Shown: piece by piece, positions 5,746 through 50,945 of the stretch
Layout: each line of letters opens with the position of its first letter
How positions within the stretch are numbered: the stretch's first letter is position 1
Position numbers and translations under genes: made by a program
Notes under the pieces: generated by a model
Told to the model about the DNA's origin: nothing
Database searches by the model: none
What the model saw: only the letters and a program-made list of their open reading frames with translations
NCBI GenBank assembly: GCA_965243415.1
Contig: OZ251549.1
Span: forward strand, 2,555,632 to 2,619,631
Origin: Candidatus Marinacidobacterium sp.
GTDB lineage: Bacteria > Acidobacteriota > Vicinamibacteria > Marinacidobacterales > Marinacidobacteraceae
Length of the DNA stretch: 64,000 nt
Direction of reading: 5' to 3'

Positions 5746-6339
5746 TTACTCGGAAGAGTCTGCGGCGGGACCGGCGGGTCTCCCGGTCGCCTGTTCCAAC
5801 CGCTCCGGCATCTTCCGGGTGGCCGCCTGCCGTTCGATGCGGATCTCCCGGATTCGGGCCTCCGCTTCCGCGTCGGTCCGGTGGGCCGGGTGCTCCGCGA
5901 GGCTGCGGAGCGCCTCGATCGCGTCGCGGTTGCGGGCGCTCGGGGTGTCCGGGTCGGGCCGGACCAGCGTCGGGCGGGGCTTTGTTTCGCTCGGGGTTTC
6001 GTTCGGGGGTTCGCTCCGGGGCGTGCTCGTCGCGGTCGGGTCGGGGGGTTCAGGGGCAGGATTCAGGGCAGGGGATCGAGGTTCGGGGGGACTCGGGGGC
6101 GGGGAGTCATCGCCGGCGGGCGGCGCCACCGGCTCCTCCGGCGGCAGGTCGAACTTCTCCAGCATCTGCTGGGTGGACTCCTCGCGCATGAGGCGGATCT
6201 CGCGGATCCAATCCTCCATCTCCATCTCCATCCGCGCCGGAAGCGGTTGCGCCCGGAGTTTGCGGAGCGCTTCGAGGGCCTTGCGGTTGCGGTCGCTCAG
6301 GTCTGCCGGGCCGGTCCGGTTCGGGGGTCGCTGCGGCAT
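5746..6339 (-). CDS. protein with two tandem copies of a VapB-antitoxin C-terminal (toxin-binding)-like module, no RHH domain
   Basis: Module 1 is SDRNRKALEALRKLRAQP...EDWIREIRLMREESTQQMLEKFD; module 2 is SARNRDAIEALRSLAEHP...EARIREIRIERQAATRKMPERLEQ. They are joined by a Pro-rich linker. Both resemble the C-terminus of the VapB at 7479..7805 (QEALEALRRLRELP...EAWIREIRLMGEESDRHMLDKIARA). Confidence 0.5.
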   Translation of the reverse strand: MPQRPPNRTGPADLSDRNRKALEALRKLRAQPLPARMEMEMEDWIREIRLMREESTQQMLEKFDLPPEEPVAPPAGDDSPPPSPPEPRSPALNPAPEPPDPTATSTPRSEPPNETPSETKPRPTLVRPDPDTPSARNRDAIEALRSLAEHPAHRTDAEAEARIREIRIERQAATRKMPERLEQATGRPAGPAADSSE

Positions 6340-6395
6340 GGTTTCGCCCGGGGGTTTCGTTCCGGTCGGCGTTCGTCGCGGCCCGGTCCGGCGAT

Positions 6396-6653
6396 TCAGG
6401 GTCGGCAGGACTCGGGGGCGGGATCATCGCCGGCGGGCGGTACGACCGGCCGGTTCCCGGCCCGCGCGGTCTTGTCCAGCATCCGGCGGGTGGATTCCTC
6501 GCGCATGAGGCGGATCTCGCGGACCCAGGCCTCGCGCTCTGCGTCCGTCCGCGCCGGCGGCTGCGCCCACAGTTTGCGGAGCGCTTCGAGGGCCTTGCGG
6601 TTGCGGTCGCTGAGGGCGTCCCGGGCGGGCTGGCCGGGCGTTGGGTGCGGCAT
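6396..6653 (-). CDS. single-module antitoxin-C-terminal-like small protein (85 aa)
   Basis: Internal ATG at 6653 gives MPHPTPGQPARDALSDRNRKALEALRKLWAQPPARTDAEREAWVREIRLMREESTRRMLDKTARAGNRPVVPPAGDD. The longer N-terminal extension in the ORF track is low-complexity. Confidence 0.45.
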   Translation of the reverse strand: MPHPTPGQPARDALSDRNRKALEALRKLWAQPPARTDAEREAWVREIRLMREESTRRMLDKTARAGNRPVVPPAGDDPAPESCRP

Positions 6654-7101
6654 CGTTTCGCTCGGGGTCTTAGGCTCGGGGTCTCGTTCCTGATGGCGTT
6701 CGTGGCGGTCGATTCCGGGAGTCCGGGTCGAGGGAGGCGGATCGTCGGCGCTTCCGATTTCGTTGCCGGCGGACTGCTCGCCGGGTTCGGAACGGAGGGA
6801 ACCGGGGAAGCGGGAGGCTACCGCGCCGGATCGCGGCGCGCCGGGCGACGACCCGTGAGCCGGATCCGCGGCGCAGCGCCGCGAAGGCCACCCCGGCGCC
6901 GACGCCGCCCCGGGCGACACCCCGTGTTGCGGTAACCCCCCGGGGGCGCGAGGGCTGCCGGACGCGGTCTCGAAGGTCCCGACAGGTGGGCCTCGTTCCA
7001 TCTCTCCCGCCGCCTGCGTGTCCCCGCGTCCCTCGCTCGAGTTCGGGGGAGACGTCCGGAAGAGACGGAAACGGGCATTCCGTCGCCGGAGGCGATCCGC
7101 G

Positions 7102-11692: not shown

Positions 11693-13050
11693 CGGATCGA
11701 CCCGATATTGAGCCGACGGATCGACCCGATAAGTGGCGGGGCCGGCGCGGATCGACCCGATAATGAGCCGATGGCGGATCGACCCGATAATGAGCCGATA
11801 CGGATCGAGCCGACGGGAGCGGCGCAGGTGTGGATCGACCCGATAATGAGCCCGATGGCGGATCGACCCGATAGTGAGCCGGTGCGGATCGACCCGACAG
11901 GGGCAGACCGGTGCGGATCGACCCGATAGTGAGCCGATAGGGATTGAGCCGATGGGAGCGGGGCCGGTTCGGATCGACCCGATAGTGAGCCGGTACGGAT
12001 CGAGCCGATGGGAGCGGTGCGGTGCGGATCGACCCGATAGTGAGCCGACAGCGGATCGACCCGATAGCGGATCGAGCCGATAGGAACGGGGCCGGCGCGG
12101 ACCGAGCCGATAGCGGATCGACCCGATAAGGAGCGGTTCCGGCGCGGATCGACCCGATAGTGAGCCAGTGCGGATCGAGCCGAACAGCGGATCGACCCGA
12201 TACGAGCGTTGGACCGCTGCGGATCGACCCGATAGTGAGCCGATAGCGGATCGACCCGATGGGATCGAGCCGATATGGATCGACCCGATGGGAGCGGGCG
12301 CCGGTGCGGATCGACCCGATAAGGAGCGGTTCCGGCGCGGATCGACCCGATAGTGAGCCAGTGCGGATCGAGCCGAACAGCGGATCGACCCGATACGAGC
12401 GTGAACCGCTGCGGATCGACCCGATAATGAGCCGACAGCGGATCGACCCGATAGGAACGGGCAGGTGTGGATCGACCCGATAGTGAGCCCCGGTGCGGAT
12501 CGACCCGATAGTGAGCCGATGCGGATCGACACGATAGGAACGGGGCCGGCGCGGATCGACCCGATAGGAACCGGCCGGTGCGGATCGACCCGATAATGAG
12601 CCGATACGGATCGATCCGATGGGAGCGGGGCCGGTGCGGATCGACCCGATAGTGAGCCGACACGGATCGAGCCGATGGGAGCGGGGCGGCGTGGATCGAC
12701 CCGATAGTGAGCCGATGGCGGATCGAGCCGATAGGAACGGGGCCGGTGCGGATCGACCCGATAAGGAGCGGTTCCGGCGCGGATCGACCCGATAGTGAGC
12801 CAGTGCGGATCGAGCCGAACAGCGGATCGACCCGATACGAGCGTGAACCGCTGCGGATCGACCCGATAATGAGAGGTTCCGGTGTGGATCGACCCGATAG
12901 TGAGCCGATAGCGGATCGACCCGATGGGAGCGGGCCGGTGCGGATCGACCCGATTGGTGCGGGCAGGCGCGGATCGACCCGATAGGCGCGGGGGCTGGCG
13001 CGGATCGACCCGATAGTGAGCCGACACGGATCGAGCCGATGGGAGCGGGC
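11693..13050. repeat. minisatellite of about 45 copies of a 15-nt core CGGATCGACCCGATA (variant CGGATCGAGCCGA) with 6-17-nt semi-repeated spacers and higher-order repeats of ~120-150 bp
   Basis: Seen directly. Three long minus-strand ORFs cross it only because the minus strand lacks stops in all frames; the plus strand has TGA in most units. Confidence 0.9.
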
Positions 13051-36949: not shown

Positions 36950-37645
36950 GGTGTCGATCGAGTCCCGAACCGGGCGTCGGTCGAAGCCGCCGGGAGTGGC
37001 CTCGGTCGAAACCGTGCCGGAGTCGGGGAGCGGGCCCGGGTCGAACGGGGCGGGGGGTGGTGGTCGAGGGTCGGGCGGGGGCGTTCGTCGAGCGGGGACC
37101 GAAGCGGGGCGGGCGCCGCTCGAAGCCCGCTCGGGCGCGTTCGGCGCCATCGGTCGAAGCCATCGGTCGAAGCCGGGAACCTCGGGTCGACCGGGGCGGG
37201 GGGTGCCGGTCGAAGGTCGGGCGGAGGGCGTTCGTCGAGCGGGGACCGAAGTCGGGGCGGGCGCCGCTCGAATCCCGGTCGTTCGCGTTCGGCGCCAACG
37301 GTCGAAGCCATCGGTCGAAGCCATCGGTCGAAGCGGGGAGGCTCGGTCGAACGGGGCGGGGGCGTGACGGTAGAAGGTCGGGCGGGGGCGTTCGTCGAGC
37401 GGGGGCCGAAGTCGGGGCAGGCGCCGCTCGAATCCCGGTCGTTCGCGTTCGGCGCCAACGGTCGAAGCCATCGGTCGAAGCCATCGGTCGAAGTCGGGAG
37501 CCTCGGTCGAACGGGGCGGGGGCGTGACGGTCGAAGGCGGGGCGGGGGCGTTCGCCGGGCGGGGACCGAAGTGGGGGCGGGCGCCGCCCGAAGCCCGGTC
37601 GTTCGCGGTCGGCGCCGACAGTCAGCCATCGGTCGAAGCCGGGGT
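36950..37645. repeat. ~175-bp tandem repeat x ~4 (with internal ggtcgaagccatc sub-repeats) directly abutting the IS1634 right end and upstream of the S9 peptidase gene
   Basis: Unit ggcgccaacggtcgaagccatcggtcgaagccatcggtcgaagcggggag...ggcgttcgtcgagcggggaccgaagtcggggcgggcgccgctcgaatcccggtcgttcgcgttc recurs at ~37140, 37290 and 37470, plus a diverged copy at 36950. Overlapping ORFs on both strands are repetitive low-complexity artefacts. Confidence 0.85.
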
Positions 37646-42504: not shown

Positions 42505-43125
42505 TCAGTCCGCCGACAGCGATCGCTGCCGGAGGAACTTCTTTCTCAGGTCCGTGAGGAACGCTCCGAGCGACCGGCAGTTCTTGCCCGCCCGGTACAG
42601 CCGCATCGCCGCCACGACTTCGGGTGCGAACTCCCGTCCGTGCAGCAGCGTCGGCGGATGGCCGGCGCCCCGGATCGTGTCGGCCAGGATCTTCTTGTAG
42701 TGGGCTCGCTCGCACTTCTGACGACCGAGGGAAGGCGCCCTGCCGACGACGGCGGCGAACGACTGCGGATCGGCCATGAGCCATCTCTCGATGTGGGGGT
42801 CCGGGCACGCCGCGACCAACCGGGGCGCGAAGGCCGGCAGCACGATCTCCTCGATACTCTGCTTCGTCTTGGCGAAGGTCGCACAGTTCCCGTCGAGCGC
42901 GACGACCACGAGGTCGAACGGCGCCACCGCCGCCGGGAACAACGCTGCCGTCTCCTGCCACGCCCGGAACTGGCTGAGCGCCCGCGGGCGCCCGCCCTCC
43001 GCCGACAGGATCTGCGTGGCGACCGACACCTCCAGCGATTCCGCGACCCGACCCACCAGCGGAACCAGGAATGCGGCGTGGGCGGAGTCTTCGGCGAAGA
43101 CGGCGACCCGAATCGGATCAGGCAT
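42505..43125 (-). CDS. DUF4276-like protein, copy B (intact, 206 aa)
   Basis: MPDPIRVAVFAEDSAHAAFLVPLV...DLVVVALDGNCATF...AACPDPHIERWLMADP...GRQKCERAHYKKILADTIRG...FAPEVVAAMRLYRAGKNCRSLGAFLTDLRK. The conserved acidic N-terminus, DGNC and CPDPHIERW blocks are shared with copy A. Family name is from recollection of DUF4276 and not verified. Confidence 0.65.
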   Translation of the reverse strand: MPDPIRVAVFAEDSAHAAFLVPLVGRVAESLEVSVATQILSAEGGRPRALSQFRAWQETAALFPAAVAPFDLVVVALDGNCATFAKTKQSIEEIVLPAFAPRLVAACPDPHIERWLMADPQSFAAVVGRAPSLGRQKCERAHYKKILADTIRGAGHPPTLLHGREFAPEVVAAMRLYRAGKNCRSLGAFLTDLRKKFLRQRSLSAD

Positions 43126-43255: not shown

Positions 43256-44368
43256 CTACGACCCGACCTGGAGGAGCCGTACGCCGTCGGGGTCGTCACT
43301 CCGGCGTTTCGCCCGGACGATCCGGCCCACGAAGAGCGGAGAATGCGTGGTGACGATGACCTGGCGGTCCTGCTGCTCGCCGAACGACAGGAGGAGGTCG
43401 GCGATCTGCTCCAGCCGACGCGGATGCACTCCGTTCTCCGGTTCCTCGATGCCGACGAGTCCCTCCTCGATCCACGGATTCCTGGTGAGGGCGCACAGCG
43501 CGAGGATCCGCAGTGTCCCTTCGGACACGATCCGGGAGGAGTACTCGATCCCGTCCTGCCGGAAGAGGAGATCGAGGTTTCCTCTCCGTTCGTTCAGGGC
43601 CAGGGTGAAGGCGTCCATGCCGGGTACGAGTTGCCGGAGCATTCGGACGACGGAGGCGTAGTACTTCGGCTTCGCGGCATGCATTCGGTACAGATACGAA
43701 CCGATGAATTCGCCGTGAACGCCGATGTCGAGGAAGTCCCCCGGAAACTGTTCGGCCCGCATACGGAACTGCGGTTCGACGGCATAGATTCGCCAGCGCT
43801 CGAACTCCCTGCGCAAGCGATCCAGTGCTTCGTATCCGGCGCCGGAGTAGCGGCGATCGGACAGGATCGAACCGCGGGCGCCGACGGATTCCCGTTTGGG
43901 TTCGCGCGATCCCTTCCGGCGTATGAGGATCTGACCATCGCGCGTCCGGATGCTGGGGAAACGGTCGGGGTCGGGCCGCGTCTCTGCCAGGTATTCGTCG
44001 GCGACTCCGATGGCGCCGATACGCGGGTCCAGCCGTGCAGAGAGGCGATACTCGTACGCGGTGGCACTCGTCGAGATGGCGGCTTCCAGGGTGAAGGACG
44101 GGCTGGCCCGGTCCGCTTTCAGAAGCGCGGGAAGACCCTCGTCCGGATAGGAAAAACACTCGGCGGGGTGGCCGCGGACCGGGGAATTCGCACCCAACGC
44201 TTCCTGGAGGGTGGGGGCGCGACTCATGACGGACAACACCTGGGCCGCCTCCAGGAGGTTGCTCTTCCCGGCGGCGTTCGGCCCGAAGAGGACCGTGAGG
44301 TGTCTTCCGGGCTCGATCGTGACCTCGCGGAGCGACTTGAAGCCGCGGACGGTCAGGCGTTCGAGCAT
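43256..44368 (-). CDS. AAA_21/AAA_15-type ABC ATPase, copy B
   Basis: Internal ATG gives MLERLTVRGFKSLREVTIEPGRHLTVLFGPNAAGKSNLLEAA, then SEGTLRILAL, IEEPENGVHP and VTTHSP. Roughly 50-60% identical to copy A. The ORF-track N-terminal 40 aa are low-complexity. Confidence 0.8.
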   Translation of the reverse strand: MLERLTVRGFKSLREVTIEPGRHLTVLFGPNAAGKSNLLEAAQVLSVMSRAPTLQEALGANSPVRGHPAECFSYPDEGLPALLKADRASPSFTLEAAISTSATAYEYRLSARLDPRIGAIGVADEYLAETRPDPDRFPSIRTRDGQILIRRKGSREPKRESVGARGSILSDRRYSGAGYEALDRLRREFERWRIYAVEPQFRMRAEQFPGDFLDIGVHGEFIGSYLYRMHAAKPKYYASVVRMLRQLVPGMDAFTLALNERRGNLDLLFRQDGIEYSSRIVSEGTLRILALCALTRNPWIEEGLVGIEEPENGVHPRRLEQIADLLLSFGEQQDRQVIVTTHSPLFVGRIVRAKRRSDDPDGVRLLQVGS

Positions 44369-44405
44369 CGGGCAGCGCGTTCTCGACCGCAGGGTAGCCC
44401 GGGGG

Positions 44406-45581
44406 TCAGCGAGTGGTGGCGGGCGAAGCCAAGGCGGTTTCGGCGAGGCGGCGGGCGGCTTCGGGGAGGCCCTGGCCGCTCTGGACATTCGCGGTCAGCG
44501 CCACGGCGAGGCCGCGTTCGGGGAGGCGGAGGAGGTGGGTGGTGCCGCCGGTGGCGCCGCCGGAGTGGGAGATCCAGAGGCCCGCCGCGTCCTCGGCGAT
44601 CCGCCAGCCGAGACCGTACTCACTCAGCGTGCCGTCGGCGAGTTCCATCGGGGTCGTCATCCGGCCGTGGGTTTCGGCGGAGATGATCGCCCCGGCGTCC
44701 AGCGCCAGCGCGAACCGCACCAGGTCCGGCGCGGTGGAGATCATGCCGCCGCCGGCCCACTTGATGGAGAGGTCGGCGAAGGGCGCGTTCCGCACCCAGG
44801 GGGCGTCCTCCGACTTCACATACTGGCGGACGCGGTTCGGCACGATGTCGCCCTGGTGTTCGAGGTAGGTCGCCTCCATCCCGGAGGGCCCCCAGAGGTT
44901 GTCCTGCAGGTAGTCGTCGAAGGACTGCCCGGCGACGGACTCCACCATTCCGGCGAGCAGGTTGTAGGCGTAGGTCGAGTAGGAATACTGCGTTCCCGGC
45001 TCGAAGAGCAGCGGGTCGTCGCGGAAGATGGCGGTGCCCGCTTCCACGGTGTCGAAGTGGTCTTTCAGGTCGAACTCACCCTCGTTGTAGTGGCGGATCC
45101 CGGAGGTATGCGTCATCAGGTGGCGCACGGTGACCGGGTATTCCTTCTCCGGGAACGACGGGAAGTACTCCTGGATCGTCCGGTCTATGTCGAGGACCCC
45201 CTGTTCGGCGAGGTGCATGATCGCGGTGGCGGCGATGGGCTTCGAGATGGAGGCGATCCGGTACACGCTGTCCGCGGTCGCCGGGACGCCGTTCTCGATG
45301 TCGGCGAGACCGGAGCCGCCGCTCCAGGTCAGCACGCCGTCCACCGCCACCGCGGCGGAGAGGCCCGGGCTGCCGGCGGCGTCGCGCGCTTCCTCGACGA
45401 TGGCGGCGAACTCCAGGTCGCGCTGGGCGGTCGGATCCGGCGCCGAACAGCCGACGACGCCCGCCGCGAAGAACGCCGCGAACGCGACCGACGGGAGGGA
45501 GAACGAGGCGAAGCCCCTCGTGGCGGCAGCGCGGGGAACGGCAGTGCGGGAAACGACGGGGCGAATCGGGAGAGCGGTCAT
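44406..45581 (-). CDS. serine hydrolase (class C beta-lactamase/esterase-like) lipoprotein
   Basis: Lipoprotein signal ...FFAAGVVGCSAP. SISK (S-x-x-K) in YRIASISKPIAATAI, a YSN-like YSTYAYN and HSGGATGG. Start ATG verified. ATGA overlap with the upstream dipeptidase stop. Confidence 0.85.
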   Translation of the reverse strand: MTALPIRPVVSRTAVPRAAATRGFASFSLPSVAFAAFFAAGVVGCSAPDPTAQRDLEFAAIVEEARDAAGSPGLSAAVAVDGVLTWSGGSGLADIENGVPATADSVYRIASISKPIAATAIMHLAEQGVLDIDRTIQEYFPSFPEKEYPVTVRHLMTHTSGIRHYNEGEFDLKDHFDTVEAGTAIFRDDPLLFEPGTQYSYSTYAYNLLAGMVESVAGQSFDDYLQDNLWGPSGMEATYLEHQGDIVPNRVRQYVKSEDAPWVRNAPFADLSIKWAGGGMISTAPDLVRFALALDAGAIISAETHGRMTTPMELADGTLSEYGLGWRIAEDAAGLWISHSGGATGGTTHLLRLPERGLAVALTANVQSGQGLPEAARRLAETALASPATTR

Positions 45582-47722
45582 CGGAAATGTCCTCCTGTGG
45601 CGGAAAGGCCGCCGGCGGGTTCGGGGGATGGTTCGGGCGGCGGGCGCGGGATTTCGGAATCGGGGAGAGGGACGGTCGCTGCGCCCCGGACGCGCTCGAA
45701 GTTGCCGCCGAGAACCGCGTCCACCTCGGCGTCGGCGAAACCGGCCTCGGCGAGCGCGGCGAAGTTCTCGTCCTCCCGGAGTCCGGCGCTGTGGGCGGAC
45801 CTGCCGCGCCGGTTGTTCCCGATCCGGATCCGGATGCTGCTGCCTCCGCGAGCGACAGTCCGCCGCACCGGTCGGGGGACGAAGGCGGCCACTGCGGGGA
45901 CCGGACCGCCGCCGACCCGGCCGCCGGCAGGTTCGGGGGATGGTTCGGGCGGCGGACGCTGGGTTTCGGATCCGGGGAGATGGGCGGTCGCCGCAGTCCA
46001 TACCCGCTCGAAGTTGCCCCCGAGGACGGCGTCCACCTCGGCGTCGGCGAAACCGGCTTCGGGGAGCGCGGCGGAGTTCTCGTCCTCCCCGAGTCCGGCC
46101 CCGTGGGCGGACCTGCCGCGCCGGTCGCTCCCGATCCCGATGCTGCTGCCTCCGCGAGCGACAGTCCGCCGCACCGGTCGGGGGACGAAAGCGGCCACTG
46201 CGGGGACCGGACCGCCGCCGACCCGGCCGCCGGCGGGTTCTGGGGATGGTTCGGGCGGCGGACGCCGGGTTTCGGATCCGGGGAGATGGGCGGTCGCCGC
46301 GGTCCACACCCGCTCGAAGTTCCCCCCGAGGACGGCATCCACCTCGGCGGCGGCGAAACCGGCCTCGGCGAGCGCCTCCGCGATGGCTTCGAAGTCCGCC
46401 TCGTCCCCGAACCCTTCGCTGTAGGCGGACATGCCCCGCAGGTCACTCCCGATCCCGGCGCTGCCCGGGCCGCCGAGATCGGTCACGCGCCGCACATGCC
46501 GGGCGAGGTCGGCCACCGTCGGAACCAGACCGGCATTCGGCCAGATCCCGAGGACGCCGCCGGCTTCGGCGATGGCCCGGATCTCCGGATCGCGCAGGTG
46601 CCGGTCGTGCTCGCGCAGCGCGAACGAACCGGTATGGCTGAACACCACCGGCGCGGTGGAGAGCGCCAGCGTGTCCCGGATCGTCTCCGGGTTCGCGTGC
46701 GCCAGGTCGAGGACGATCCCCAGCCGGTTGCACTCGCGCACCACCTCCCGACCGAACTCGGTGAGCCCGCCCGGCGTGTAGGGCCAGGTCTGGATGTGCC
46801 CCAGCCCGTTCGCCCGGAAGTGCACGAGTTGCAGCAGCGCGAGCCCCATTCCGTGGAGTTCCCGCAACCGCTCGATATCTCCTTCCAGCGAGTCCGCGCC
46901 TTCGACCGCCGGGAGGATCGCCAGCGCGCCGGCGTCCCGCGCCCGCCGGGCCTCCGCCGGCGTCCGGACGAAGACCGCGTTCGCCTCGGCGACGGTCCGG
47001 GTCAGCCGCTCGAACCGGTCGAGCGTGTAGGCCCAGGGTTCCCCCGGTTCCGGTCGGCGGTCGCCGGACTCGATCCTCGTTCCGTCACGCAGCACATAGC
47101 CGCCCCGGTAGGGAGTGTCGGTGCTGATCGTCGCCACGACAGCGTCCATGCCGCGGTCGAGATAGCGGGCGATCTCCTCGTCGCTGATCCGCGGCACATT
47201 CGCGCGGTGGAACCGGGACGGATGCGCGTGGATGTCCACCCGCAGCGGCCGTTCCCCGTCCTCCTGCCGCACCCCGGTGCGGTCCTCCGGGAGGACGGCC
47301 CCGACCGGCAGGCCCCGGTGCGCCGGCCCGCCCCCGGCAACGGGTATGGAGCGGGGCATGAAGGGGGGAATGAACGGGGAACCGAAAACGGAACGGGGCC
47401 GCCCCGAAGCAGGGTTCGAAGCAGGCCCCGGCACGACCACCGGAATGAAGGCGGAACCGAATGCGGAACCGCCGACCGAACCGCCCACGAAACCGATTTT
47501 CGTCGAGCCGCCGACCGCCGAACCGCCGGCTGACGAACCGCCCACTGACGAACCGATGGCCGCCGAGCCGCCGCCCGACGAACCGACCGCCGCCGAACCG
47601 ACCGCCCCGCCGAACCCCGCCGCCGCGCCGGCGGAAACCAGCAGGGCCCCGGCGAGCGCCGCCCGCCCACGCCTCCGCGACCCGAACCGCTGACGCCCGG
47701 CCGCCGGCCCTCCCCCCGACAC
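45578..47722 (-). CDS. membrane dipeptidase (peptidase M19) with candidate Tat signal, Gly/Ser-rich linker and triplicated C-terminal segment
   Basis: M19 core DIHAHPSRF, VHFRANGLG, LDLAHANPE, VFSHTGSFAL and IGSDLRG. Upstream in frame are RRRGRAALAGALLVSAGAAAG (Tat-like) and a GGS-rich linker. A GTG start is proposed at 47722. The 3' ~780 nt are three in-frame tandem copies of the last ~86 codons. Confidence 0.7.
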   Translation of the reverse strand: MSGGGPAAGRQRFGSRRRGRAALAGALLVSAGAAAGFGGAVGSAAVGSSGGGSAAIGSSVGGSSAGGSAVGGSTKIGFVGGSVGGSAFGSAFIPVVVPGPASNPASGRPRSVFGSPFIPPFMPRSIPVAGGGPAHRGLPVGAVLPEDRTGVRQEDGERPLRVDIHAHPSRFHRANVPRISDEEIARYLDRGMDAVVATISTDTPYRGGYVLRDGTRIESGDRRPEPGEPWAYTLDRFERLTRTVAEANAVFVRTPAEARRARDAGALAILPAVEGADSLEGDIERLRELHGMGLALLQLVHFRANGLGHIQTWPYTPGGLTEFGREVVRECNRLGIVLDLAHANPETIRDTLALSTAPVVFSHTGSFALREHDRHLRDPEIRAIAEAGGVLGIWPNAGLVPTVADLARHVRRVTDLGGPGSAGIGSDLRGMSAYSEGFGDEADFEAIAEALAEAGFAAAEVDAVLGGNFERVWTAATAHLPGSETRRPPPEPSPEPAGGRVGGGPVPAVAAFVPRPVRRTVARGGSSIGIGSDRRGRSAHGAGLGEDENSAALPEAGFADAEVDAVLGGNFERVWTAATAHLPGSETQRPPPEPSPEPAGGRVGGGPVPAVAAFVPRPVRRTVARGGSSIRIRIGNNRRGRSAHSAGLREDENFAALAEAGFADAEVDAVLGGNFERVRGAATVPLPDSEIPRPPPEPSPEPAGGLSATGGHFR
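45600..46400. repeat. ~258-bp tandem repeat x3 inside the 3' end of the M19 dipeptidase ORF
   Basis: Protein-level copies: ...EADFEAIAEALAEAGFAAAEVDAVLGGNFERVWTAATAHLPGSETRRPPPEPSPEPAGGRVGGGPVPAVAAFVPRPVRRTVARGGSS, then ...AGFADAEVDAVLGGNFERVWTAATAHLPGSETQRPPPEPSPEPAGG..., then ...AGFADAEVDAVLGGNFERVRGAATVPLPDSEIPRPPPEPSPEPAGG. DNA copies are ~90% identical. Confidence 0.8.
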
Positions 47723-47804
47723 GGCTACGACGACCGCTCCTCCGCGGCGAGGTCCGGGGGCGCGCCGAGCCTCGCTCCGAACCCGCCCCCCGACACCGCT
47801 GCGA

Positions 47805-49205
47805 CTACTGCTCGTCGGTCGCGACTTCCGGCAGCACCACCCGCGCCACGCCGTCCCGGACCTCGAACTTCGTCCCGTACGGCTCCGAAAGCCGCACCAC
47901 ATCCTGCAGGATCTTGTCGGCGAGCGCGCCCTTCGCCATCATCGGCCGGCCCCGCACCGAAACCGGTTTCCCGTGGCCGAGCGTGATCGGATGGAGCGTC
48001 AGGTTCGCCAGTTGCGACCCGCGCCACTCGGGAACCGCGACCACCGCTTCCCAGATCTCCGGGATCGCCGGGAAACCCACGGTGTCGTTCCGATACCGGG
48101 CGGCGTTGAAGTCGGCCAGCCCGTCCATCTCCCCCAGCCCGTATCGCTGGTAGTTCTCGTACGGCAGCCGCTCCAGCGTCTCGTTCTGGAAGAGGAAGTC
48201 CCCGAGGCTGTAGAGGATCGGCGCCCCCTTGTAGATCTCGATGGCGCGCAGCACATGCGGCCCGTGTCCCACGAACACCGACGCCCCGGCGTCCACCATC
48301 GCCCGGGCGAAAGTAACCAGGAACTGCGCCGGCAGGAAACGGCTCCCGGCGCCCTCGTGGGCGTGGATGGTCACCATCACATACTCGGCCAGGCGGCTGG
48401 CGTTGTTCACCACCGAGGCGATCTCCGCCATATCGCCGGCGTGCGGCTCGGTGCGGATCCCGGGGGCGTCGGCGACCTCGAACCGCTGGCGCAGGAAGGT
48501 CAGCGTGTCGCCGCTCTCCGGGGGATCCATATCCAGGCCGCGCATCGTTTCGCGCACGCCTTCGATCTGCTCCCGCGTCACCAGGTAGGTCGTGGTATGC
48601 CGCAGCGGGTTCAGCCCCGGCCGCGCCGGGATGTCGTCCCGCGACCGGCCGGCCATCGAATGGAGCGGGAAGGTCGAGGACACCGAGATCAGCGCCAGCC
48701 GCCCGTGCTTGGTCTCGACGAACTTCGCCGCCCGCGCTTCGGCCAGACTCCCGCCGACCCCGGCCGCGACGATGCCCGCTTCGCGCACATATTTCTGCGT
48801 CATCAGCATCGCCGGCGGCCCGTAGTCCCCGGAGTGGTTGTTCGCCAGCGATCCCAGGTCGAAACCGGCCCAGGCGAACTCGGAGACCAACTCCGGCTGG
48901 GCGCGCATGTAGGTGCCGCCGCTGGAACTCATCGGGTAGGTCTCGTAGTCGTGGAACAGCATCTCCACATTGGTGAAGGCCAGGTCCGCGCCCCGGATGA
49001 GTTCGATCATCTCCAGGAACTCCGGCTCCTCGTACACGCTCATCTTCCGGGTGATGATCGAGTCGCCGGTGAGCGCCAGCCGCAGCCCGTCCTGGGCGCC
49101 CACGGCGGCGGCGAGGCCCAGGCAGCCGCAGAAGGCGAGGGCGAAGGCGGCGAACCGCCGGAACCGGGAGCGCGGGTCCGCGCCGTCACGGGTGATCTCA
49201 GTCAT
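47805..49205 (-). CDS. CapA-family (PGA_cap) metallophosphatase-like protein with signal peptide
   Basis: MTEITRDG...FAAFALAFCGCLGLAAAVGAQD is a signal. LALTGDSIITRK, GFDLGSLANNHSGDYG and MVTIHAHEG match the CapA/calcineurin-like fold. ATG verified at 49205. Confidence 0.8.
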   Translation of the reverse strand: MTEITRDGADPRSRFRRFAAFALAFCGCLGLAAAVGAQDGLRLALTGDSIITRKMSVYEEPEFLEMIELIRGADLAFTNVEMLFHDYETYPMSSSGGTYMRAQPELVSEFAWAGFDLGSLANNHSGDYGPPAMLMTQKYVREAGIVAAGVGGSLAEARAAKFVETKHGRLALISVSSTFPLHSMAGRSRDDIPARPGLNPLRHTTTYLVTREQIEGVRETMRGLDMDPPESGDTLTFLRQRFEVADAPGIRTEPHAGDMAEIASVVNNASRLAEYVMVTIHAHEGAGSRFLPAQFLVTFARAMVDAGASVFVGHGPHVLRAIEIYKGAPILYSLGDFLFQNETLERLPYENYQRYGLGEMDGLADFNAARYRNDTVGFPAIPEIWEAVVAVPEWRGSQLANLTLHPITLGHGKPVSVRGRPMMAKGALADKILQDVVRLSEPYGTKFEVRDGVARVVLPEVATDEQ

Positions 49206-49209
49206 GGTG

Positions 49210-50945
49210 CTCTGCCCTCCGGGGAACGACAGTGGGAACAGCGAGTGTATCCGCCCCGGCATCGGCCCCGCATCGGCCCCCGCCCCGGCCCCGTTGTCCG
49301 CCTCTTCCCCGGCGCTCCCGAACCCGTCCCCGGCGCGTCCCCCGGGCCGGTTCCCCCGCCTCCGCCCCGTCGCGCGGCCCCTCCCCGGCAGCCGCGCCGC
49401 ACCTCCACGACCTGCCCGGCGTCCCCGCAACCGCGTCTTCCCCGGCGCTCCCGAACCCGTCCCCGGCGCGTCCTGCCGGGCCGGATCCCGCTCCCGACCC
49501 GCCGCGCGCCGCGACTCCTGACAGCGATGTCGCACCCCGACGACGAGACCCGGCCCCCGCCGCCCGGCCCCCCGACGACGACGCCCGGCGTCCCGGCAAC
49601 GGCTTTCCTCCCGGCGCTCCCGAACGCGGCCCGAACACTTCCTCACCGGGCCGGATTCCGCTCCCGACCCGCCGCCCGGCCCCTCCCCGGCTCCCGCCGC
49701 ACCTCCGCCGCCAGCGCCCCCTCCGCCGCCAGCGCCCCCGCCGCCGTCAGCGCCCCCGATACCACCCGGCGCGCCGGCGTCCGCCGGTTCCCTCCCAACT
49801 CCCGGCTCACCGCCGTGCGGCTCATCCCCGTCTCCGGGTAGTGGCGGCCCGGAACCCGCCGCTCACCTCCGACCCTCTCGCCCTCTCGGCCGGGAACGAA
49901 TGGACTGCACCCCTCGCCCCCCCGGATCGGAACCTCCGCCGCGCCGGCCCCGAGCCGAAGAGCGGGAAATCTCCACTGCCGGGCGACACTCCGCAACCGC
50001 CTCCTTCCCCGGCGCTCCCGAACCCGTCCCCGGCGCGTCCTCCCGGCCCGGGTCCCCGTTCCCGACCGCCGCCCGCGCCAACCGCCGAACAGCCGCGTCG
50101 CACCCCGAAGACGAGGCCCCGGCGCCCGACGACGCCCGGTCCCCCGACGACGACGCCCCGCGCCCGCTGCCCCGCTGTCCCGGCTGTCGTCCGGGCACCC
50201 GCCCGCCCCGACTCCCGACCCCGGCCCTACCGCCGCCGGGAGTCGAGCGGGGGCCGGTCGCCGAGGACCCCGCTCAGGGACGAAATCCGACCCCCGCGCT
50301 GCATCGAGTGCCGCTGTCGCCGCCTCCACCTTGCGCCGGTTCCCGGGCATCCCGGCCCCCCGCCGCGCTGCCCCCGCTACCGCGCCACTCCCGGAACTGC
50401 GCCGGCCCTCGCCGACTTCCGGCGCCGGCGCTCGTCCGGACCCCGGCGGCCCCGACTCCCGCCGCCGGCGCCCGCCCCGACTCCGCGGCCCTGACTCGCC
50501 GCCCCGACTCCCCACCCCGGCCCTACCGCCGCGCGGCGATCGGGCGGGGGCCGGTCGCCGGGAACGCGGCTCAGGGACGAAGTCCGACCCCCATGCCGCT
50601 CCGAGTTCCGCTGTCGCCGCCTCCACACTCCGCCGGTTCCCGGGCATCCCGCCCGCCGCCGCGCCACCCCGCCGGTCGCGCCACCCCCGCGGCCACGCTG
50701 CCCCATCGCCGAGCCGGCCCCCGTCGTCGCGCCGCTCCCGCCGGTCGTTCCACCTCCGCTGCCGCGCCACCCCGCCGGTCGCGCCACTCCCGTCATCGCG
50801 CCATCTCCGCCGCCACCCCGCCCCCCGGCGCCGCCCGATGACATCCGGCGCCCGACGATGACGCCCGACGCTTCCCGGCGCCCGGCGCCCCGCCCCGACT
50901 CGACGGCCCTGACGCCCGGCGCTGGCCCCGCCCGACCGATCCCGA
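49210..50945. repeat. 1.7-kb GC-rich (~80%) non-coding block with at least five dispersed/tandem copies of a ~130-bp element (TTCCCCGGCGCTCCCGAACCCGTCCCCGGCGCGTCC...CCGACCCGCCGC) and related sub-repeats
   Basis: Copies start near 49306, 49438, 49600, 50000, 50330 and 50630. The only ORFs are repetitive Pro/Arg/Gly artefacts on both strands (e.g. the GMPGNRR(S/K)VEAATA repeats). Confidence 0.7.

Follow-up and report, generated by a model that had tools for sequence, protein, structure and literature searches.

Tandem arrays of coding sequence that behave like variable-number tandem repeats (VNTRs) occur in bacterial surface and secreted proteins, where their copy number varies by unequal recombination; the alpha C protein of group B Streptococcus, with its 246-bp repeats, is one such case. 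Intragenic tandem duplication is also the core of the half-barrel duplication model for HisA and HisF, which describes gene elongation in (beta/alpha)8 barrels. Here we describe a locus that shares features with both, the gene for a peptidase family M19 (renal) dipeptidase in a 64,000-nucleotide stretch of contig OZ251549.1 from Candidatus Marinacidobacterium sp. (the whole stretch is referred to as the window), in which the 3' end of the gene is present three times in tandem and in one reading frame.

Like the VNTR-like arrays, the M19 array consists of large in-frame units (hundreds of nucleotides), differs in copy number among close relatives, contains hybrid units and belongs to a secreted protein. 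Unlike them, its unit is a fragment of the catalytic fold of an enzyme and not a dedicated repeat domain, and its copies are 10-24% diverged and mostly neutral, with copy-number change that has no known phenotype. As in HisA/HisF, the gene has grown by tandem duplication, in frame, of adjoining beta/alpha elements of a triosephosphate isomerase (TIM) barrel; here, however, roughly one beta/alpha unit plus a tail was duplicated and appended outside a complete M19 barrel, and the additions are predicted to be disordered and decaying, with no new fold. The protein shares with the M19/renal dipeptidases of known structure (human DPEP1, 1itq; Sco3058, 3id7; GliJ, 5lwz; and 2i5g) the PF01244 domain, the fold and the family-typical ...GGNF.RVW ending. 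It differs from that family in its repeated C-terminal segment, found in no solved or representative M19 protein by a structure-sequence search and a census of 1.84 billion proteins, in having DIHAHP (HxH) for the HxD metal motif, and in its long low-complexity N-terminal linker. A literature search turned up no paper mentioning 'Marinacidobacterium', and a generic search for in-frame tandem duplications returned no close parallel. A paper on Neisseria ccoP was considered as a parallel and set aside, since it describes a fusion between different genes and not an intragenic repeat.

Results and discussion

An in-frame triplication at the 3' end of the dipeptidase gene

An earlier sequence-only reading of this DNA had proposed that the dipeptidase gene carries three tandem copies of its last ~86 codons (258 bp). 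The tandem, in-frame triplication was borne out by Tandem Repeats Finder (TRF), which reported an array at 45607-46375 with period 306, 90% matches and a score of 1259, and by a repeat search in which the start-to-start spacings were 306 and 312; the peptide strings quoted in that reading are also all present in the sequence. While the repetition is real and well beyond chance, the unit is longer than proposed. Three full copies, in register in a three-way DNA alignment, span 45608-46531 on the minus strand, with units of 306, 306 and 312 nt (102, 102 and 104 codons). The unit starts at GLVPTVADLA (46531), upstream of the start given previously, and comprises alpha7, beta8 (with its GSDxRG motif), alpha8 (AGFxxAEVDAVLGGNFERVW) and a Pro-rich tail ending PEPAGG. 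Successive copies meet at the junction peptides ...SPEPAGGR / VGGGPVPAVAAFVPR, and the C-terminal end of the protein is ...AGGLSATGGHFR. The copies diverge from one another by 10-24% overall, in addition to in-frame indels. As the sequence-only reading had stated, the open reading frame (ORF) runs on to an ATGA overlap with the next gene (45578-45581), so that amplification inside an enzyme gene has genuinely lengthened the ORF up to its neighbor; the M19 stop meets the downstream ATG at 45579-45581, and AGGAGG (45591-45596) lies 9 nt upstream of that ATG. The real C-terminus had been called ambiguous, which does not hold at the level of the ORF: there is no in-frame stop before 45578, and all 7 multi-copy relatives described below read through.

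The junctions between copies bear on where the duplicated segment came from. The 28 residues from PEPAGG to the next GIGSD are a degenerate copy of alpha7 (0-12 of 1000 shuffles reach the observed score), and this homology is collinear, with GLVPTVADLARHVRRVTDLGG aligned to GPVPAVAAFVPRPVRRTVARGG in the segment just upstream of GIGSD. Because the junction segment aligns with alpha7 and not with the start of the downstream gene, the unit is wholly intragenic. Had the duplication instead spanned the gene boundary, the junctions would be decayed remnants of the ribosome-binding site (RBS) and the 5' end belonging to the downstream beta-lactamase-family gene, the stop codon having been lost. By eye the junction segment does loosely resemble the RBS/ATG region, and copy 3 extends at 62% identity into the next gene, but alignments of the junction to the downstream region are no better than chance (131-358 of 500 shuffles reach the score across 10 comparisons), whereas the match to alpha7 is both significant and collinear. 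A duplication across the boundary was rejected on these tests and is, in our judgment, extremely improbable. The motif GCCGG occurs as a microhomology at both unit boundaries, and the RBS is excluded from the unit. A PEP-CTERM/exosortase signal, suggested by the string PEPSPEP, was likewise tried and rejected: neither the whole protein nor the extension gave an NCBIfam hit at E <= 1, there is no terminal hydrophobic helix, and the segment after PEP derives from alpha7.

Copy number among relatives

A single copy is present in 32 species-representative genomes (including L011), with a stop 12-14 codons past GGNFERVW. Database records of these 32 are labelled Acidobacteria, Vicinamibacteria or 'Ca. 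Marinacidobacterium', except for the two most distant, which are metagenome-assembled genomes of Gammaproteobacteria. Most of these single-copy representatives end in ...GGNFERVWEAVTAHLPASDP and the stop codon, after which come ~12 nt of spacer that include an RBS, and then the ATG of the beta-lactamase-family gene. Among closer relatives, three loci (L006, L007 and L011) have one copy, yet carry a longer Pro-rich tail that reaches the ATGA overlap. Two copies are found in P0003, P0004, P0055 and P0057, three in P0001, P0056 and the window, and four in P0058. Across this range of 1 to 4 copies, the arrays of these closer relatives are all in frame. The orthologue comparison that the sequence-only reading had called for in order to place the ancestral stop was run against the 32 single-copy relatives and maps that stop just after amino acid 485, at about position 46267 of the window.

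Last copies are 84-89% similar to the last copies of other genomes, versus 76-83% to the first copies of their own genome, and the first duplication therefore predates the divergence of these genomes. It is common to at least 7 of them, with a synonymous divergence (pS) of ~0.2-0.3 between first and last copies. The earlier description of a recent event accordingly needs to be split: given that distribution and divergence, the first duplication is not very recent, and only the second event is. Copy 3 of the window shows 88-100% per-block identity to the last copies of L054 and L055.

These comparisons also address the concern that the array is an assembly artefact, in which wrong expansion of a repeat, or the tandem joining of strain variants, would hide a real genome with one copy. 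Exact look-ups of the window's own proteins, including the beta-lactamase-family protein and P0002 (a public protein identical to the product of this gene), gave no second assembly, and copies 1 and 2 share a stretch of ~140 nt across the helix and tail blocks that is 92-95% identical. Weighing against an artefact, the copies differ overall to the extent given above and by in-frame indels, the same architecture (2, 3 or 4 copies) recurs in at least 7 further assemblies that come from different samples and two pipelines, and last copies are orthologous across genomes. Several of the multi-copy proteins were recovered identically by the two assembly pipelines (ENA and Logan), and the identical protein lies on a 4.48-Mb contig, which would suggest long-read data. 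We consider an assembly artefact very unlikely, the worry being largely answered by the relatives.

In a sister clade (P0005 and P0007-P0010) the repeated unit is a nested one of 46 codons, made up of alpha8 and the tail only and present in 6-9 copies. Units u2 and u7 are 99% identical and units u3 and u5 97% identical, which shows recent higher-order duplications. Premature stops occur at the distal end in L009, P0007 and P0008. At L009 (4968-5052) the stop shortens the last 46-codon unit and leaves ~83 nt of former coding sequence as a spacer, and in P0010 the last unit has shifted to the +1 frame, which stays open as far as the ATGA overlap. The stops and the P0010 frameshift together indicate that distal repeats are dispensable in this clade. 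When a 77-aa unit was searched against the 1.84 billion representative proteins of the census, a second strong match to the unit appeared only in this cluster of proteins. The sole other multi-stretch match (P0080, 7 stretches) was discarded as an unrelated repeat protein with GGNFENL-like low complexity. The phenomenon is confined to this clade.

A hybrid middle copy

At the sites that differ between copies 1 and 3, copy 2 agrees with copy 3 across the alpha7-like and beta8 blocks and thereafter with copy 1 to the end of the unit, in a single sweep whose switch point lies within or near the alpha8 helix block. The identity of copy 2 to copy 3 and to copy 1, respectively, is 98.8% and 68.1% in the alpha7-like block, 90.1% and 74.1% in the block of beta8 and its loop, 88.9% and 92.1% in the alpha8 helix block, and 84.6% and 94.9% in the Pro-rich tail block. 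Such a hybrid is what unequal crossing-over between the last copy and the first copy of a two-copy ancestral array is expected to yield, with the exchange falling in the longest stretch of conservation. Replication slippage, proposed earlier as the source of the triplication, does not account for it in its simple form, as the mosaic copy 2 points to unequal homologous crossing-over as the origin of the third copy. What had been described as progressive degeneration is this same mosaic: the added copies are degenerating, but the apparent progression reflects a recombinant middle copy. In L001, L055 and L053 the extra copy is a different mosaic that keeps FEAIAEAL and lacks the 12-nt deletion, and because this mosaic differs from copy 2 of the window, the extra copy there arose separately. 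With head-to-tail copies, copy-number differences and a mosaic unit, the locus is a tandem coding repeat of the kind that evolves by unequal homologous recombination.

The enzyme fold and its extension

The gene product matches PF01244 with E = 1.3e-72 and 245 bits (cut-off 26) over profile positions 34-318 of 319, and this domain match stops at the first GGNFERVW. An AlphaFold2 model was computed for amino acids 158-714 from an alignment of 31 sequences. Its predicted local distance difference test (pLDDT) score is mostly > 85 over the barrel (model residues 1-320), dropping at 11-20 and 271-290, and falls below 50 in the extension over model residues 334-394, 424-494 and 526-557. Two short helical stretches of low confidence (model residues 395-423 and 494-525, pLDDT 51-73) match the duplicated alpha8 region. 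The top 20 Foldseek matches to the model are all M19 structures, including 2i5g, GliJ (5lwz) and human DPEP1 (1itq), at E = 1e-15 to 1e-22; target-normalised template modelling (TM) scores against M19 structures are 0.65-0.80, with only ~350 residues aligning. Sequence searches against solved structures matched 3id7 and 1itq at ~1e-28. By both its profile and its barrel fold, the gene product belongs to peptidase family M19. According to the model, the enzyme proper probably ends with copy 1 and the remainder forms a flexible tail.

The N-terminal 80-90 residues of the barrel show no alignment to solved M19 sequences. In place of the canonical M19 HxD zinc motif, part of the binuclear-zinc ligand set of the family, the protein has HxH (VDIHAHPS, 47225-47240), which appears as DIHAHP, DLHSHP or DMHAHP among relatives. 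This motif falls outside the Pfam and PDB sequence alignments, and HxH is conserved across the subfamily.

Selection on the extra copies and maintenance of frame

Ratios of non-synonymous to synonymous differences (pN/pS, pairwise Nei-Gojobori) are 0.09 for the core barrel, 0.09 for the head of the first copy, 0.53 for the head of the last copy, 1.06 for its tail and 0.71 for the whole last copy; in the alternative frames the ratio is close to 1 or higher. The corresponding omega was then estimated for each block by counting minimum substitution events in 7 genomes, with 12 extra copies among them. For extra and first copies, respectively, omega is 0.90 and 0.10 in the alpha7-like block, 0.71 and 0.15 in the block of beta8 and its loop, 0.24 and 0.20 in the alpha8 helix block, and 0.76 and 0.42 in the Pro-rich tail block. 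The alpha7-like, beta8 and tail blocks of the extra copies do not differ from neutral, and from these ratios the extra copies appear to be mostly unconstrained. We hold with good confidence that the locus records a genuine, lineage-specific gene elongation in which the later copies arose by unequal crossing-over and a largely disordered tail is decaying almost neutrally.

Several observations weigh against this account. The alpha8 helix of the extra copies has the omega of 0.24 given above, from 11 synonymous and 8 non-synonymous events (binomial p = 0.002); it differs from the other blocks of the extra copies (Fisher p = 0.046), and pairwise tests return 0.17-0.23 for it at a pS of ~0.3, which pure neutrality does not predict. 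The amplification of the same helix by two clades with different unit boundaries, together with indels that are all multiples of 3 (12, 6, 3 and 3 nt in the 102-codon arrays), hints at some selection. In addition, the three-copy array of this genome is known from assembled sequence, and two elements of the history given below, an origin of the first duplication at GCCGG and selection against read-through, are ones that we infer.

An alternative is that the extra copies are a selected functional module, with alpha8 helices on Pro/Gly-rich spacers acting as multivalent interaction or tethering elements, or as oligomerising swap-in segments, at a contingency-like copy number. Its case is that the helix block has a low omega while its flanking blocks are neutral, that the sister clade independently amplified the helix and tail alone to 6-9 copies, that frame is kept in 8/8 multi-copy arrays of the 102-codon family examined, and that AlphaFold2 still predicts the two helices in the extra copies. 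However, the helix block evolves almost neutrally in the sister clade (pN/pS 0.58 in L008; 0.79-0.87 in L009, whose units were compared by an alignment allowing for a 2-aa insertion), and the helix signal rests on ~19 substitutions. As crossovers fall in the helix block, gene conversion from the constrained first copy could mimic purifying selection there. Distal units of several relatives carry stops or frameshifts, catalytic-motif residues decay (GSD to GNN), and 32 related species manage with a single copy. A functional module is on balance unlikely. The more specific proposition that helix-plus-spacer modules are kept by selection and that their number (1-4 large or 6-9 small) adaptively tunes a secreted enzyme has, in our estimate, a slim chance of being correct; if true, copy number might affect oligomerisation, envelope tethering or interaction with the CapA-like or beta-lactamase-family partner in these uncultured, possibly host-associated Acidobacteriota. 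Were the duplicated helix under selection, the locus would be a case of a fold fragment recruited as a repeat module.

Near-neutral decay of the tail can also be reconciled with the intact frame. Both alternative frames are open across the array, as ORFs 44406..46307 (the downstream gene's own frame) and 45076..46446, and because of this a frameshift would probably be harmful, yielding an M19-beta-lactamase-family fusion or carrying ribosomes ~500 nt into the next gene. Selection against such read-through would keep the frame without any function of the peptide.

Proposed history of the locus

Under near-neutral elongation, the M19 dipeptidase of a narrow clade of uncultured Acidobacteriota would first have gained a longer Pro-rich C-terminal tail reaching the next start codon. 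A 306-nt intragenic segment, from alpha7 to the Pro-rich tail, would then have been duplicated in tandem and in frame, probably at the GCCGG microhomology of both boundaries, with the duplicated segment ending immediately before the final 9 codons, which hold the RBS of the next gene. Once two copies were present, unequal homologous crossing-over, mainly in the best-conserved alpha8 stretch, could alter copy number. The three-copy array of the window would have come from a two-copy ancestor in this way, its middle copy being the recombinant. Copies 2 and 3 are presumably translated, as no stop intervenes, and would form a largely disordered and dispensable C-terminal tail.

The amplification of the M19 tail is real and heritable, a clear new case of a process that is already known. 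What the sequenced relatives provide is a natural time series of gene elongation, in which the ancestral stop, the tail extension, the first in-frame duplication, the recombinant third and fourth copies and their decay are all visible. There is a lesson for annotation as well, in that the annotated stop lies ~230 residues beyond the functional C-terminus. Off-frame stops are scarce in very GC-rich genomes, and appended junk can persist there in frame for a long time.

The N-terminus and the G/S-rich linker

Coordinates of the gene, its parts and its immediate neighbors are collected in Table 1. As an open frame the minus-strand ORF covers 45578..47902. All seven relatives' gene calls use the GTG corresponding to 47722, and the first 36 codons have a pN/pS of 0.44 in frame versus 1.1-1.8 out of frame; the conserved in-frame sequence and these gene calls together support the GTG start. 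For the public protein P0002 (593 aa) the annotated start is an internal ATG at 47358 (MPRSIPVAGGG...), a choice that omits the signal-like region and the G/S-rich linker and is disfavored by the relatives and by in-frame conservation. The public gene call thus appears to begin ~120 codons late.

Table 1. Features of the M19 dipeptidase locus, in coordinates of the window.
Feature	Coordinates	Strand	Evidence and remarks
M19 dipeptidase ORF, 714 aa	45578..47722	-	GTG start 47722, TGA stop 45578-45580; ORF listing, Pfam PF01244
Signal-like N-terminal region: Arg-rich n-region, then hydrophobic stretch AALAGALLVSAGAAAG	47615..47722	-	Sequence, pN/pS
Lineage-specific low-complexity linker rich in G, S and P	47252..47614	-	Core 47504-47625 is a 15-nt (5-codon) slippage repeat
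Catalytic M19 TIM barrel, aa 158-485	46268..47251	-	AlphaFold2 pLDDT, Foldseek, pN/pS 0.09; end corresponds to the ancestral stop
Repeat copy 1, 102 codons: true alpha7-beta8-alpha8 terminus of the enzyme, with the Pro-rich tail	46226-46531	-	Unit alignment; omega 0.10-0.20 in structured blocks, 0.42 in tail
Repeat copy 2, 102 codons: hybrid	45920-46225	-	5' part copy-3-like (common 12-nt deletion, RRGRSAH), 3' part copy-1-like
Repeat copy 3, 104 codons	45608-45919	-	6-nt TCCGGA-type insertion; GSD to GNN; orthologous to relatives' last copy
Unique final 9 codons (LSATGGHFR) plus stop	45578..45607	-	Outside the repeat unit; hold the downstream gene's RBS AGGAGG and ATG
Serine beta-lactamase-family gene, 391 aa	44406..45581	-	Downstream; Pfam PF00144, E = 4e-73; neighbor conserved in all relatives
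PGA_cap (CapA-like) gene	47805..49232	-	Upstream; Pfam PF09587, E = 3e-45; conserved neighbor, fused to M19 in other lineages

A twin-arginine translocation (Tat)-like N-terminus, as described in the sequence-only reading, found no support. Searches of four N-termini against NCBIfam and Pfam matched no Tat-signal profile; what they gave at E <= 10 was weak and unrelated, although weak hits may be lost to the tool's filters. Relative L006 lacks the RR pair (SRELGR), and the more distant relatives L036 and L041 have signal-like N-termini without it. A Tat signal was rejected for want of a profile match and of a conserved RR pair.

Basal relatives have a short signal-like N-terminus that runs almost directly into the barrel. 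The linker insert of ~115 aa is absent from them, varies in length among relatives and is nearly neutral (pN/pS 0.81). It had been assigned a 24-nt DNA repeat of its own. A slippage-type, lineage-specific expansion is what we find, but the period is 15 nt: autocorrelation of the linker DNA peaks at 15, 30, 45 and 60 nt (0.50-0.54) and is close to background at 24 nt (0.34), and TRF gives periods of 15, 30 and 45 at 47504-47625. The 24-nt period was rejected on the basis of the autocorrelation.

Neighboring genes and other repeats in the window

Gene order is kept in all loci with enough flank, in the sequence M20, PGA_cap, M19, beta-lactamase family, AAA_15/21 ATPase and DUF4276 protein. Other lineages contain PGA_cap-M19 fusions (806-815 aa; P0015-P0020) and M19-beta-lactamase-family fusions, the fusion proteins taken together being P0015-P0020, P0021, P0030 and P0034, and these fusions suggest that the three neighboring genes work together. 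Relative to L027, P0021 has the look of a frameshift-type fusion that bridges the ATGA junction. Of the two genes that follow the beta-lactamase-family gene, 43256-44488 (minus strand) matches the PADLOC candidate defence model HEC-01A at E = 1e-45, as well as AriA/OLD-like ATPases, and 42505-43125 (minus strand) matches candidate model HEC-01B at E = 1e-5. These two genes are the AAA_15/21 and DUF4276 pair, which trails the peptidase cluster in all relatives.

Tandem duplication is also evident elsewhere in the window, and the genome seems generally prone to it. Further large GC-rich tandem repeats lie at 6089-6667, 37146-37640, 49298-49544, 49702-49757 and 50652-50812, among them units of 317 nt x1.8, 160 nt x3.1 (91% identity) and 133 nt x1.9; the 160-nt array is just upstream of an S9 prolyl-oligopeptidase-like ORF and the 133-nt array just upstream of the PGA_cap gene. 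Finally, at 11694-13040 the 13-nt motif GGATCGACCCGAT recurs 45 times on the same strand with no more than 1 mismatch, where 0.39 would be expected by chance, in an array of 1.35 kb that is not CRISPR-like, with a spacing of mostly 26-31 nt and TRF periods of 16, 31, 56, 85 and 193.

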